Positions 15,189 to 35,033 of a stretch of 64,000 nt of DNA are shown here, piece by piece. The translations under genes were made by a program, and so were the position numbers. Where the stretch lies: positions 40,306 through 104,305 of IMG/VR virus record IMGVR_UViG_3300028610_002211, one strand, 5' to 3'. The stretch is from a virus. Under the pieces are notes generated by a model that ran no database searches, was not told where the DNA came from, and was given only the letters and a program-made list of their open reading frames with translations. Every line of letters starts with the position of its first letter. The stretch's first letter is position 1.

Positions 15189-15431
15189 ATGAAAGAGGCA
15201 AGCAAAATGAAAATCCAAATCGCTAGTTTATACGCAAACGAGAAAAACAAAAAAAAGGCCGATCGGATCAAAAAGGCACTACAAGGAAAAACGTCTTTTA
15301 ATTTGCAAGTGTCGGCGGTCAACAAGGGTGGAAACCTCATTATCACAGTTTCGAGTAGCTTTGCCGAAAACATGGTTGAATTGGCTGAGATGGTTATGAC
15401 TCTTCTTGTTGACTTGATCGACGGTGAATAA
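15189..15431 (+). CDS. Hypothetical protein
   Basis: ORF with a likely start at MKIQ after GAGG. Confidence 0.55.
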   Translation: MKEASKMKIQIASLYANEKNKKKADRIKKALQGKTSFNLQVSAVNKGGNLIITVSSSFAENMVELAEMVMTLLVDLIDGE

Positions 15432-16710
15432 AATGAAAAACGTAACACAAGAAAGAAAAATTTTTTGGTACAATCGTTTCGATTTTTTGGCGGTAGCAAT
15501 TCTTTTTTGGGCCACTATCAAAAAGAGCGCTTTCAACAATGCGCGCTTGGTTTTCAACGGCGAAACCCGCGTTGTTAGGGGTCGGACCGAATATTCACCC
15601 AACATCACAGAATACGGTTTTGAAGTTGTTTGCGACATCAACGATCATATCGAAATCCCTGGACACCGCTTTGTTGGAATCGCCGTAAACAAAGGACCGG
15701 GTTGGATCGTTACCAACTTCACTGACGATTTCAAATTCACCAAAGAGGTTGTTGACTCTTTGGATCCACAACGTTGTGATATGTGCGGACACAAAAGAGA
15801 CCGGGTTCGTTTGATGATTCTCGAAAACACCGATACCAAAGAGCTTGTGATCGTGGGTGGCAGCTGCGCAAAGAATTTTCGCAACGTCAATCTTGAAGAC
15901 TTGGTCCGCAAAATGACAATTTTCTCAAGCAACTTTGGCTGTATGGACCCTGATGAATTGGGCGGTTTTGGCGGCGGCGGTCGTAGAATTTTGGATTTGG
16001 TTGAGTCGATCGCGGTTGGCGAATTGTTGATCTCTCGACTCGGGTACACCTCAAGAAAAAAAGCAGATATAGGAATGACTTATGCTACTTCAGATTTGAT
16101 CGCCGATTATTTCGCGAGCAAGGGTAAGTCTTACAAATCCATCAAAGCCGTTATGGACCGCTCAAGGTTAGACCTTGCTCAGCGCATTAAAGAGCTTACA
16201 AACGGCGGTCTGAAGGCGCTTAGGGCTCATTTCGAGCGCGCTAACGAGCGCCGTTGGTCTGAATTCAACAGCAACATGGTTGTTTGGTTGTCTTGTAAAG
16301 AAGACGTTCCGCTTGGTGTCGCTGCTTACCTCGCTTTTGTCAACCTCGAAGGCGCCAAAGAATCGGACCGGACCGATCAGAAAGTTGCCGGCTTCGACGG
16401 TGCACCGATCAAAAAAATGTCAGATTTCGGTTGGTTCAAAGTGGTAAACGTTAGAGCAAAGGAGAATGATTACACTGGTAACACTGATTTTTGTTTCACT
16501 TGTTTGAACGCCGATTCACAAAAACTTTGGTTCAAGGTTGGCGAGAATAGCGTTGCAAATAAAGCTTATGATCAAGTTGTCTCGGGTGATGGGGTTAACC
16601 AAGATCAAGAGATCTGGATCGATGTTCGTGGCAAATTGACCCGAAGCAAAAGTGAAATTGCTTTTGCTTCGCACATCAAATTCAAAAAAGTTGAAATCCG
16701 CACAATCTAA
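15424..16710 (+). CDS. Conserved phage protein with a Zn-binding motif and possibly a C-terminal OB-like fold
   Basis: CDMCGHKRDR...VGGSC motif; 428-aa ORF; beta-rich C-terminus. Confidence 0.6.
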   Translation: MNKMKNVTQERKIFWYNRFDFLAVAILFWATIKKSAFNNARLVFNGETRVVRGRTEYSPNITEYGFEVVCDINDHIEIPGHRFVGIAVNKGPGWIVTNFTDDFKFTKEVVDSLDPQRCDMCGHKRDRVRLMILENTDTKELVIVGGSCAKNFRNVNLEDLVRKMTIFSSNFGCMDPDELGGFGGGGRRILDLVESIAVGELLISRLGYTSRKKADIGMTYATSDLIADYFASKGKSYKSIKAVMDRSRLDLAQRIKELTNGGLKALRAHFERANERRWSEFNSNMVVWLSCKEDVPLGVAAYLAFVNLEGAKESDRTDQKVAGFDGAPIKKMSDFGWFKVVNVRAKENDYTGNTDFCFTCLNADSQKLWFKVGENSVANKAYDQVVSGDGVNQDQEIWIDVRGKLTRSKSEIAFASHIKFKKVEIRTI

Positions 16711-16721
16711 ACAATTTCGAA

Positions 16722-16761
16722 AAGCAAACAAAGGGTGCGGGAAACCGCGCTCTTTGTCTTT
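16722..16761. terminator. Bidirectional intrinsic terminator
   Basis: aaagggtgcgg-gaaa-ccgcgctcttt, A-rich on the left and T-rich on the right. Confidence 0.7.
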
Positions 16762-16897
16762 GCAGAATGTCCAGGGCGCCCTTGTGCGCGCGCCCGCGCG
16801 CGGGCGCATACTCGGGCAAGGGTTAAACACAACGGCCGTTAGAACGGCGCACAAAGGTTCTGAGAAGGAAGTGAGATAAACAGATCCTAAAGGATAA
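16722..16897 (-). ncRNA. Candidate sigma54-driven structured small RNA 1
   Basis: Non-coding; bounded by a sigma54 site and a terminator; arms ccttgtgcgc (16780) / gcgcacaaagg (16847). Confidence 0.4.
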
Positions 16898-16905
16898 TAT
16901 CTAAA

Positions 16906-16923
16906 TTGCAATCTGCGTGCCAA
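16906..16923 (-). promoter_or_regulatory. sigma54 (RpoN) -24/-12 site
   Basis: Minus strand reads TTGGCACGCAGATTGCAA = TGGCACG-N4-TTGCA consensus. Confidence 0.75.
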
Positions 16924-16942
16924 AGGAAAAATAATTTTTTTT

Positions 16943-17027
16943 AAAATAAAAGTGAGAATTTTCTTGACATCTGAATTAGCTGTGTTAAGTTTATAATATG
17001 AGCGCAACAATAAGGAGCAAGACAATG
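16943..17027 (+). promoter_or_regulatory. Promoter/leader cassette, copy 5
   Basis: TTGACA(16964)-16 nt-TAAGTT, TATAAT, ATG(16998), AGCGCAACA, AAGGAG, ATG(17025). Confidence 0.85.
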
Positions 17028-17512
17028 AACGTTAAAATGAAAAAAGGAGAAACAGGTTATTTCAAGGGTGACAAAATACAATTCACCGGAAAAGAAGAAG
17101 TTCTTTACGGTGGGCTTTTCGATGAGTTTGTTTATCTCGAAGGTTATAAAAAAGCAGCTAAAAAAGCATAATGCACAAAGGAGCAAGTAAAATGAACACC
17201 ACTAACAATAATAAAAATACTGTCGAAGAAAAAAGAACAACAATCGAGGTTTTCGACCCTAAAAAATTCGATCACAACCAAAGGTGGTTTCAACCGATCA
17301 ACAATTTTGCTTTTCTTGGACAAGCTTCCGGTATGGCGCTCGCTCACGATCCGATTTATAGGGATAGTCTATGGGCCGAAACAGTACCGCACCCTAATTT
17401 TTTGCGCGATGTCGAGAGAAAATTTCCCGGTCATGTGTTGGTTTATGATGATATGGGTCATGGACGCGATTGGATTCTCTCGATCAAAGGTTCTATTCCT
17501 TCGAACGAATAG
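16998..17512 (+). CDS. Small genes 16998/17025-17171 (absent from the ORF track) and 17171/17192-17512
   Basis: SD-led ORFs; the second reuses the leader fragment cacaaaggagcaag. Confidence 0.65.
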
Positions 17513-17671
17513 CGTTCAACGCCCTTGTGCGCGCCCCTGTGGTAACTTTTGTTTGTCTCCTGTGTTGCGCTAACCATGGGGATTTGAGTCGAACAGGAGC
17601 GCGCACAAGGGTGTTGAACCCGTTCAACAGCTTCAATGAACCTGCCAAAATAAACAGATCCTAAAGGATAA
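17510..17671 (-). ncRNA. Candidate sigma54-driven structured small RNA 2, carrying a copy of the cassette leader in its loop
   Basis: 27-bp near-perfect inverted repeat (17514-17540 / 17593-17619); the loop reads AGCGCAACACAGGAGACAAACAAAA on the minus strand. Confidence 0.45.
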
Positions 17672-17679
17672 TATCTAAA

Positions 17680-17697
17680 TTGCAATTCACGTGCCAA
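17680..17697 (-). promoter_or_regulatory. sigma54 -24/-12 site
   Basis: Minus strand reads TTGGCACGTGAATTGCAA. Confidence 0.75.
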
Positions 17698-17716
17698 GAA
17701 AAAAACCACTTCTGTT

Positions 17717-17809
17717 TAATTTAAATGTCGTTTTTCGGTTGACATCTAAATTAGAATGATTAAGCTTTATAGTATGAGCGCAACACAAAACACGGGAGAA
17801 AACAAAATG
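17717..17809 (+). promoter_or_regulatory. Promoter/leader cassette, copy 6
   Basis: TTGACA(17739)-16 nt-TAAGCT, ATG(17774), AGCGCAACAC, GGAG, ATG(17807). Confidence 0.8.
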
Positions 17810-18393
17810 ACAAAAATCGAAATGGCTCAGTATATTGTTGAGGTCTTGTATCAGTTGGACCACGTACCTGCCCGAGATCACATCCATGTCCAGCGAATAG
17901 CTCGCAGGCCGAAGGTTGCCTTGGAGAATTTGTACGAAAGAGCTTTCGTGGTCGAAGAAGAGCTGAAGGCGAAAAAAACCATAGCTAGCCTGTAAACCAA
18001 AACTGCAAACGGGGGGGGTAACACTCCCCGAAAGGGTGTCCGATGAACGACAAAATAAAAAAAATACTGTTCGAATTGTCGGCCGATTTCACTTTGGCTG
18101 GTATCCAACAAGGGCGCAAATCGTTACACGAGGATAAAGCGCTTTGCCTCAAGGTTTCGAAATTACGAAACGCGATCGATCTTTTGTCACTCCAAAGAGC
18201 GCAACTTGCGCGTTGTTGGGAAGGTGTTTCGATTACTTCTATCGTTGAAACGGTCAAAGAATGTTTGGGCGCAGCGCTTGAATTGGGATCTTTTTTGGGT
18301 AATAACTACCCCGCCGAGTATATCGAAATCGAGTTGCATGGTACAAAATACGTCGAAAAATGTTGGGCCTTGATTGGCGTTTTGTCCGTTTAA
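17774..18393 (+). CDS. Small genes 17774/17807-17995 and 18043-18393
   Basis: ORFs follow cassette 6. Confidence 0.6.
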
Positions 18394-18415
18394 AATCGTA
18401 TTTCATCCCGGTTTA

Positions 18416-18445
18416 AAGGTGTTTCGAAAGGGGCGCCTTTTTTTA
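18416..18445 (+). terminator. Intrinsic terminator
   Basis: aaaggtgtttc-gaaa-ggggcgcc followed by a T run. Confidence 0.65.
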
Positions 18446-18476
18446 TTTCTGTGTAATTCACAAGTCAGGATAATCT

Positions 18477-18494
18477 TTGGCACGTAAATTGCTA
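18477..18494 (+). promoter_or_regulatory. sigma54 -24/-12 site
   Basis: TTGGCACGTAAATTGCTA. Confidence 0.75.
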
Positions 18495-18502
18495 CGCGTG
18501 TT

Positions 18503-18700
18503 GTAAATATTATCCTTTAGAATCTGTCCATCCGTTTCGGCGTCCGAATTAACCGCTTATTTTTGTTGGCGTTAGGCTTTGTGTTTGAAAACGAGTTCAA
18601 GGGCCTTGTGCGCCTTCTCAAGGCGTTTTAACGGGTCAACCTATACCAGGGGTTGAGTTAAAAAAACGGTCGTTAAAACGCCTTGTGGATATCTTGTGTT
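18503..18700 (+). ncRNA. Candidate sigma54-driven structured small RNA 3
   Basis: Shares TATTATCCTTTAG(G/A)ATCTGT and ccttgtgcgc with RNAs 1 and 2; perfect 15-bp inverted repeat at 18619-18633 / 18671-18685. Confidence 0.4.
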
Positions 18701-18723
18701 TAATTCACATGTTGATAAATAGT

Positions 18724-18741
18724 TTGGAATGAATATTGCAA
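18724..18741 (+). promoter_or_regulatory. Variant sigma54 site
   Basis: TTGGAATGAATATTGCAA with correct GG/GC spacing; same upstream box and downstream TTTAGAATCTGT as the 18477 copy. Confidence 0.55.
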
Positions 18742-18837
18742 CGCGCGCTTGTTTACATTTAGAATCTGTACATCCGCTTCAACCTTCGATATAAATTGCG
18801 TTTTGACTTTTTAGTTAAAGAGTGTTAAAACCTGTTC

Positions 18838-19338
18838 ATGAAAATTCTAAGACGAAAAAACATAAAAAGCTTTCCGGGTTATCAAATTTCAAACTTTGGA
18901 ACAGTTAGGAGAGAAGTTTATAAATTGTACGGGATTAAGGAAACGAGGATATTTCCTCATATCAATAATGGTTATCAAATTGCCAATTTAAAAAGCGAAT
19001 CTGGGGAGCAAAAGAAAGTGCCTATTCACAAACTTGTTGCAAAAGCTTTCGTTTCCGGCTGGTTTGAGGGCGCAATTGTTGATCATATCGACGAGAATAA
19101 GCAGAATAATTTTTTCAAAAATCTTCGCTGGGTAACTCATCGCTTTAATTCCTCTCGACGTAAGCGCGATCTGCCTTTGAATGTTTCAAAATTTCGAAAT
19201 CGAAATAGTTATATTGTTCGAGTTTATTTCGGTGGTGAAATCGTTTATTTGGGCTCATATAAGACGGTTGAAGAAGCTTCGAGGGTTGCTGAAAGGGCGC
19301 GCAAGCAAGCGGAAAAAGGGGAAAAACCAACTCGTTAA
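18838..19338 (+). CDS. NUMOD4/HNH homing endonuclease with an AP2-like C-terminus
   Basis: YQISNFGTVR; IHKLVAKAF..VDHIDENKQNN..NLRWVT; YLGSYKTVEEA. Confidence 0.9.
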   Translation: MKILRRKNIKSFPGYQISNFGTVRREVYKLYGIKETRIFPHINNGYQIANLKSESGEQKKVPIHKLVAKAFVSGWFEGAIVDHIDENKQNNFFKNLRWVTHRFNSSRRKRDLPLNVSKFRNRNSYIVRVYFGGEIVYLGSYKTVEEASRVAERARKQAEKGEKPTR

Positions 19339-34121: not shown

Positions 34122-35033
34122 ATGACCGAAGAAGTGGCTTTAGAAAAGGCGGAAAGTGTTGGTGTTGAACATGAATACACCGATTTGGAAGTTAACGAAA
34201 TTTCAGTGGTAGATAGGCCAGCAAATCAAAAAGAATTTGCTGTAATCAAATGCGTTGGAAACAGCGCAACACAAAAAGGAGTGGAACCAATGGCCGATCA
34301 AGTAGCGAAATCTACAGAAGAGGCTGCTAATGTCGAAGTGGTTCCTGTCGAAGTGGCCAAGAACGATGATGACTCGGCCATGGAGCAGGCGCTTGAAAAC
34401 CTCGACACTATTTCGAAATCGATTGCGGGGTTAGCCGCTCAAGTCGAAGACGAAGAAGGCGGCAAAACCGAAACCGAAACAGAGGCGGAAAAGGCCGCCA
34501 AAAAAGAAACACCGGCAACGATCTTTGCCAACGCGTTGAAGGCAACCGGCGTTAAAGGCGAAGCGCTCAAAACCGCGCTCAAAAAGTACGAAAAAGTTTG
34601 TGCTTGTGGTTCGGCGACGGTTCAAAAGACCGAAACCAAAACCGAAACCGAAGGCGCCGAAACCGAAACCGAAGGGGACAACGATTTCATGGGGAATCTT
34701 GCGGCGGCGGTTACTAAAGCCAAGGTGTTGACCCCGAAACGGCTTGCGGCGTTAAAAGCGTTGCAAGAACAGTTGGCCAAGATGATCGGTGAAATGGAAG
34801 GAATCCCTCATTCCAAATCACCGAAAACCAAGGTTCCGAAAAACGCAAGTTTCGGCGCAAGCGGTCTAAGCACGATCACAAAAAGCTTCGAAACCATATC
34901 GACGGCGCTGAAAACGCTAACTGGTCGAATCGAACAGATCGAAAACACCCGTCAAGGATCGAAAAGCCTTGGCGAAAGCGGCACTGTAACAACAAAAAAG
35001 GCGGATAAAGATCTTTGGGACAACGTTCTGTAA
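34122..35033 (+). CDS. Capsid scaffolding protein with an N-terminal protease fragment; internal start at 34290
   Basis: EISVVDRPAN, then an acidic coiled coil with TETE repeats; AAGGAG before ATG 34290. Confidence 0.7.
   Translation: MTEEVALEKAESVGVEHEYTDLEVNEISVVDRPANQKEFAVIKCVGNSATQKGVEPMADQVAKSTEEAANVEVVPVEVAKNDDDSAMEQALENLDTISKSIAGLAAQVEDEEGGKTETETEAEKAAKKETPATIFANALKATGVKGEALKTALKKYEKVCACGSATVQKTETKTETEGAETETEGDNDFMGNLAAAVTKAKVLTPKRLAALKALQEQLAKMIGEMEGIPHSKSPKTKVPKNASFGASGLSTITKSFETISTALKTLTGRIEQIENTRQGSKSLGESGTVTTKKADKDLWDNVL

Follow-up and report, generated by a model that had tools for sequence, protein, structure and literature searches.

The DNA analysed here (hereafter the window) is a stretch of 64,000 nucleotides comprising bases 40306-104305 of a 104,305-bp phage record from IMG/VR, which is rated complete by CheckV. 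All long reading frames of this phage lie on the + strand, and the terminase, portal and major head genes begin at ~28.3 kb of the window. The terminase is ~26% identical or less to those of the nearest cultured phages, and the phage does not belong to the T4-like group. Between 10 and 18 kb the window carries short genes, each group of which is headed by a repeated cassette made up, in order, of an AT-rich run, a -35 hexamer, a 17-nt spacer, an extended -10 element, an ATG at ~+1, an 11-nt core, a Shine-Dalgarno sequence (SD) and a second ATG. Six copies are present in the window (Table 1) and a seventh lies at genome position 34,540. The setting is an uncultured, deeply divergent phage without cultured relatives, in which one leader is common to all early cassettes.

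Two relatives, both short contigs (hereafter L039 and L040), were obtained by scanning metagenomes for the cassette. In the window cassettes, in L039 (1497-1541) and in L040, where the cassettes lie on the minus strand near 1925, 1655, 1166 and 852, the first ATG at ~+1 is always in frame with the ATG led by the SD. Leader lengths vary between cassettes and every difference is a multiple of three. As the first ATG stays in the frame of the SD-led ATG despite these differences in length, the early leader is suggested to be translated, either as a common N-terminal peptide of the MSATQ type or from a leaderless start. The leader core and SD are found again at 34260-34292, without a promoter, within the 34122-35033 frame and ahead of an internal ATG. 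A 13-nt inverted repeat (17717-17729 / 17741-17753) overlaps the -35 hexamer of cassette 6, with weaker forms in cassettes 2-4, and is a candidate operator. Further upstream, a 13-bp hairpin with a GAAA loop and T-rich tails (16719-16752) stands directly after the stop codon of gene 15424-16710; it is likely to be the terminator of the cassette-4 operon and is absent from the listing of the terminator scan.

Table 1. Features of the early region and of the hairpin locus, in window coordinates.
Feature	Position	Strand	Remarks
First ATGs of the window cassettes	10743, 11400, 11832, 14979, 16998, 17774
Copies of the sigma54-type box	16907-16922(-), 17681-17696(-), 18478-18493(+), 18725-18739(+)	both	Three exact, fourth variant
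Cassette 5 promoter and its two genes	16964-17512	+	First ATG 16998; near-consensus promoter
Early gene upstream of the hairpin	17171-17512	+	TAG stop 17510-17512
Stem 5' arm	17514-17540		Inverted-repeat search; 74% identity to L039
Loop	17541-17592		52 nt; 81% identity to L039
3-bp helix inside the loop	17545-17547 pairs with 17587-17589		Consensus folds of both strands
Leader-like 25-mer	17547-17571	-	Core, SD and spacer, no start codon; + strand is the anti-leader
Stem 3' arm	17593-17619		Inverted-repeat search; 70% identity to L039
Conserved box	17654-17697	-	Sigma54-type -24/-12 at 17681-17696, then 14-nt block at 17654-17667
Cassette 6	17739-17806	+	Sigma70-type promoter, first ATG 17774, leader, SD; second ATG 17807

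The hairpin and its loop

The last early gene before the hairpin encodes a protein with homologues on other contigs at 95% and 74% identity. Directly 3' of this gene lies a hairpin of 106 bases, the base of which is 2 nt past the TAG stop codon. The 27-bp near-perfect stem described in the original prediction is real: 25 of its 27 positions pair (93% complementary), the exceptions being one G-T and one C-A, and it is more stable than any shuffled sequence. RNA fold energies are -66.7 kcal/mol for the + strand and -61.4 kcal/mol for the minus strand, with z scores of -6.4 and -6.6, respectively, against 200 dinucleotide shuffles, none of which was as stable (0/200). The sequence of the arms is unique, with no second copy in the window or in the 104-kb genome.

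The loop had been described as carrying an inverted leader, with leader motif, SD and spacer present and the second ATG missing. This description is confirmed by an exact 25-mer on the minus strand of the loop, for which 0 matches are expected by chance. The 11-nt core within it is identical to the core that follows the -10 region in the seven cassettes, and the loop copy aligns to the leader from the first ATG through the post-SD spacer with a 7-nt gap. An inverted leader copy is found only in the cassette at 17514-17806, and the window loop is closer to the SD region of the L039 type than to any leader of the window. One detail fared less well: the upstream ATG in the SAT frame (MVSATQ) is present in the window, at 17577-17575, but is not kept in L039. 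A 39-aa minus-strand ORF starting at 17577 was rejected, L039 having ATA in place of the start codon and an in-frame TAG just before it. Since the minus-strand ATG is not conserved in L039, the comparison of the two sequences indicates that no small protein is encoded by the hairpin.

An intrinsic terminator was also considered and rejected. The stem is GC-rich but encloses a loop of 52 nt, nothing is listed at this site by the terminator scan, and no T/U run of the kind that marks a canonical terminator comes after the stem in either phage, whichever strand is read. Elsewhere the phage does have canonical terminators, one following the cassette-6 operon (18415-18440) and another preceding cassette 7. 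Searches of Rfam gave no match at the gathering score for the window and only noise up to E = 10 for 16650-18900.

Conservation in a distant relative

The conservation evidence for the hairpin comes from one relative, L039, in which positions 1186-1371 align with window 17510-17704. Homology begins at the TAG stop codon; the DNA before the stop is 50% identical and thus unrelated, and the L039 hairpin starts 2 nt after the stop codon of a gene (718-1188) that is unrelated to the upstream gene of the window. On the other side, the protein of the gene 3' of the cassette (window 18043-18393) is 41% identical in L039, relative to which the window has an extra 62-aa gene. As the hairpin module is shared while its flanks are unrelated or 41% identical, it is an orthologous element of two widely separated phages. 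Another distant relative, a 108-kb phage with 66% terminase identity, lacks cassette, box and hairpin alike in the matching region, and no relatives were returned by blastn of 16900-18400 against cultured phages, by locus searches anchored on the flanking-gene proteins in viral, metagenome and genome collections, or by searches of viral contigs with DNA patterns of the arm, box and hairpin. The cassette pattern gave 14 matches in viral contigs, all by chance, and the hairpin pattern gave 9 palindromes in genome contigs, all unrelated.

Between the window and L039, the 27 pairs of the stem show six two-sided changes, three one-sided changes and no broken pair (0). All three one-sided changes still pair or newly pair, and the L039 stem is paired at 27 of 27 positions, one of them as G-U. 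Within the loop, one pair of the 3-bp helix is A-U in the window and G-C in L039, and two 9-nt blocks, the counterparts of the leader core and of the SD region, show no difference between the two phages. The spacer between hairpin and box (17620-17653) is 47% identical, with indels. The original prediction had made conservation of the loop in relatives its own test, and the loop is indeed conserved, at 81% and together with six compensatory pairs. With a compensated stem and a loop that retains 81% identity where the spacer has 47%, the hairpin is best described as selected and not as a decaying scar; on this evidence it is an island under purifying selection, in which the sequence of the loop matters as well as the stem. 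Since the loop holds an inverted copy of the early-gene start signal, the hairpin is probably a regulatory RNA element. Through this covariation it joins the small number of non-coding elements in metagenomic phages that evolution can be said to support, here by way of one relative.

Concerted evolution of a DNA inverted repeat could mimic such covariation, because the arms of inverted repeats can be homogenised without selection on RNA. The constraint might then act on DNA, with the palindrome forming a cruciform or a protein site, e.g., a replication origin or nicking site near the HNH gene, and the loop copy providing an additional target for a factor that also recognises early promoters around +1. 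The surroundings are in keeping with this, as the 2-kb region contains four boxes in both orientations, AT-rich runs and GC-rich palindromes. However, the arms hold G-T and C-A oppositions in the window and T-G in L039, which fit mutation followed by compensation over copying; a compensatory change is also seen in the 3-bp helix inside the loop, and the region yielded no evidence of an origin. Constraint at the level of DNA is consequently regarded as highly improbable.

Could the stem alone be the functional part? The hairpin would in that case serve a composite intergenic cassette purely by its structure, whether it attenuates transcription, is cut by RNase III or stabilises 3' ends between two early operons, and the leader copy in its loop would be the footprint of recombination between cassettes, with no sequence-specific role. 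Near-perfect dsRNA of ~20 bp or more is the substrate of RNase III, and the stem has 25 of its 27 positions paired in the window and all 27 in L039. At 27 bp it is long enough for the enzyme and is a plausible substrate, cleavage being a prediction here. At the T7 R sites and lambda sib, RNase III cuts long stems and thereby sets the stability of mRNA 3' ends. The present hairpin shares with these sites a long double-stranded stem between or after early genes; their loops have no known complementarity to other messages, unlike the loop described here.

Closer in its layout is the PeSL of T4-type phages, an intergenic stem-loop in AT-rich DNA with a strong sigma70 promoter and an SD, which occurs in repeated copies (PMC2839356, PMC4122927). 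PeSLs flank variable small genes and are kept while the genes are swapped (PMC2839356, PMC4122927). The same features are found in this phage: the cassette is repeated seven times, a stem-loop, an AT-rich run and a promoter all lie within 17514-17806, and the conserved cassette stands between swapped genes, the upstream one unrelated and the next 41% identical. That the module is kept while the flanking genes differ between phages, as described for PeSLs (PMC2839356, PMC4122927), supports a structural role, as does the array of four cassettes with GC-rich stem-loops in L040, none of which is of the present hairpin type. PeSL stem-loops, however, have been shown to terminate transcription, whereas the stem here encloses a 52-nt loop and is followed by no U tract on either strand, despite the canonical terminators found elsewhere in the phage. 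A role for the stem only also predicts a loop that has diverged like the spacer (47%), and the loop is 81% identical. A hairpin acting by its structure alone is therefore considered unlikely. Each cassette of L040:1-1955 heads one small unrelated gene, and with the stem-loops between them these cassettes resemble a PeSL array outside the T4 group.

Predicted pairing of the + strand loop with the early leaders

If the hairpin is a regulatory RNA, from which strand does it act? A choice by counting G-U against A-C oppositions was discarded (two wobbles and one mismatch versus one wobble and two mismatches). On the + strand, the terminator scan lists nothing between 16998 and 17514. Given the near-consensus promoter of cassette 5 and the lack of an intervening terminator, a + strand hairpin RNA is therefore made if the promoter works. 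It would form the 3' end of the cassette-5 early transcript, or an internal part of transcripts that read through to cassette 6. The 27-bp stem would present the 52-nt loop, which has at its centre two complementary blocks, one for the 5' end and the other for the SD region of the leader.

The complementary blocks measure 11 nt and 5+8 nt in the window, and 9 and 12 nt in L039. Duplexes predicted between the + strand loop and the seven leaders have energies of -27 to -35 kcal/mol and z scores of -3.3 to -5 against shuffled loops, and take the form of two helices around a bulge. The L039 loop is predicted to pair equally well with four of the six leaders of L039 and L040. Across the whole + strand, the best leader-complementary 30-mer is the loop itself, with a score of -34.3 against -27.2 for the next (background -9.5, sd 3.7), so the coding strand has exactly one such leader-complementary segment. 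The leaders stood out in this 30-mer scan, but not when the full 52-nt loop was scanned for duplexes across the genome. These duplex scores are not independent evidence, because the complementarity follows from the homology between loop and leader. The proposal that the + strand loop could pair with the early leaders holds in these predictions, for all seven leaders and with the loop as the best segment of the strand.

Two modes of action may be envisaged. In cis, on read-through RNA, pairing would be with the nearest target, the leader of cassette 6, which follows 205 nt downstream; the proximal promoter of cassette 6 lies between anti-leader and leader, and the complementarity starts at ~+4 of the cassette-6 transcript. 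In trans, the loop could pair with all seven leaders, possibly once RNase III has cut the stem and freed the loop. In either mode, pairing would mask the first AUG and the SD and so lead to less translation, or to cleavage of early messages.

There is a precedent for the cis arrangement in T4: the genes e, soc, 49 and I-TevI have an anti-RBS upstream of their proximal promoters, and it blocks translation from read-through RNA only (PMC3014915). Both partners are present on the long transcripts of these genes, while those started at the proximal promoter have the RBS alone (PMC3014915). In the same fashion, the anti-leader lies upstream of the own promoter of cassette 6. The two systems differ in that the strands of the T4 helix are adjacent, whereas 205 nt separate them here (~270 in L039), with the anti-RBS placed inside a hairpin loop; and T4 has one target where the seven leaders are possible targets here.

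For the trans arrangement, the original prediction had drawn a comparison with the P1 c4 and P4 CI RNAs. CI of P4 is a same-strand antisense regulator that is cut out of the transcript it controls. For c4, an account that cites Citron and Schuster (1990) likewise places the antisense segment on the strand of its targets and has the regulator excised from the very RNA that it regulates (PMC8198154). The geometry of P1/P7 c4 and of P4 CI is also seen here: the several targets are on the same strand, and two short complementary blocks cover the ribosome-binding region. The comparison stands as to this geometry and fails as to family membership, no Rfam match in sequence or structure having been obtained. 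The hairpin also differs from c4 and CI in that the antisense segment is placed in a 52-nt loop on a 27-bp stem at the 3' end of an operon, and in that the phage has no signs of lysogeny in the window.

The + strand is favoured because transcription is certain if the promoter works, because the hairpin adjoins a stop codon in both phages, and because the anti-leader is unique. That the hairpin is a conserved RNA element of the + strand with an anti-leader loop is our leading proposal, put forward tentatively and with somewhat less than even confidence. What we infer here, from sequence, is selection at the RNA level, activity of the + strand, pairing in vivo and the effect outlined above. Three observations weigh against the proposal: the loop does not track the leaders of its own phage, a conserved promoter-like box on the minus strand aims at the hairpin, and similar boxes precede structured non-coding DNA. 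Early shut-off and insulation are known in a few model phages, where they are achieved by proteins (RegB, RegA) or by local RBS hairpins. If the pairing works, the leader and anti-leader would constitute a compact global riboregulator and a ready-made orthogonal part.

The sigma54-type box and the minus strand

The minus-strand sigma54 site of the original prediction also exists as a sequence element. The box lies 61 nt upstream of the hairpin on the minus strand, oriented towards it, and the match at 17681-17696(-) is to the exact sigma54 consensus, with GG at -24, GC at -12 and fixed spacing. Exact matches to this consensus number three in the window against 0.03 expected. The L039 box is 89% identical, with two changes, both outside the GG and GC, and again faces its hairpin from ~50-60 nt away. 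Copies of the box sit in a repeated unit of ~60 nt with the conserved 14-nt block, and two of the four units (A to D) face left and two face right. Comparison of five copies shows constant -24 and -12 elements with a variable spacer between them. The DNA that follows the box is structured and GC-rich in units A, B and C, and in unit D it is a gene for an HNH endonuclease (18838-19338). A sigma70-like reading of boxes A and B was rejected, as it is lost in copies C and D and in L039.

A small RNA of ~150-160 nt could accordingly start at the box and display the sense leader in its loop, with an SD and no start codon. Such an RNA might act as a mimic that titrates leader binders, either a protein or the 30S subunit, or form a long duplex with the 3' end of cassette-5 mRNA. 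In favour of it are the excess of exact consensus matches, the constancy of the -24/-12 elements over a variable spacer, and the conservation and orientation of the box in L039. In addition, units B and C share 20 of 24 nt from the side of the box into the hairpin arm, in the same orientation, and unit C stands directly after a canonical terminator, which implies that it needs a promoter of its own. On the other hand, no Sigma54_activat domain is encoded by the phage, the genes of which are all on the opposite strand, and the hairpin is not followed by a minus-strand terminator in either phage. The structures after the box differ among units A, B and C, part of unit A resembles a decayed + strand 5' untranslated region, and box and hairpin are divided by a spacer that is not conserved. 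Transcription of the hairpin from the minus strand is judged rather unlikely, although the conserved box makes it the leading alternative to the + strand. It is compatible with transcription from the + strand, as convergent transcripts would both contain the hairpin.

In bacteria, the Qrr RNAs of Vibrio and GlmY/GlmZ of enterobacteria are short structured non-coding RNAs driven by -24/-12 promoters. GlmY/Z also have an overlapping sigma70 reading, as do boxes A and B here. These are bacterial genes with known activators, whereas the present box belongs to a phage in which no activator domain was found. To our knowledge there is no phage example of a sigma54-dependent small RNA, and a search of the literature found none either. 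If the minus strand is indeed read from the box, this would be a phage that uses sigma54, with the hairpin transcript as the first phage small RNA driven by it.

The components of the locus are of known kinds, namely an antisense or anti-RBS element, a long processing stem and a mobile promoter cassette. What appears to be new is that one conserved hairpin shows the inverse of a common early leader and stands beside a sigma54-type box; this combination of hairpin, inverse leader and box was not described in the literature found. At its most ambitious, the proposal is that a small hairpin RNA, made as part of an early transcript or from a host sigma54-type promoter, switches the translation of the whole early set through its antisense or mimic loop. 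We regard this as doubtful. Were it true, a riboregulator would be doing the job of the RegB nuclease of T4.

Two further observations concern the DNA that follows the other boxes. In unit A, a stretch of 40 nt (16828-16867) is 87.5% identical to genome 8750-8790 (window -31555 to -31516), a segment that directly precedes the ATG of a + strand gene (8792) as its 5' untranslated region. The stretch is followed by an SD-like run and GTG-AGA-TAA and looks like a dead gene start; a short motif akin to it precedes the SD of L039 gene 718-1188. Unit C contains a perfect 15-bp stem with a 37-nt loop (18619-18685), which is ~11 kcal/mol more stable on the + strand than on the minus strand.
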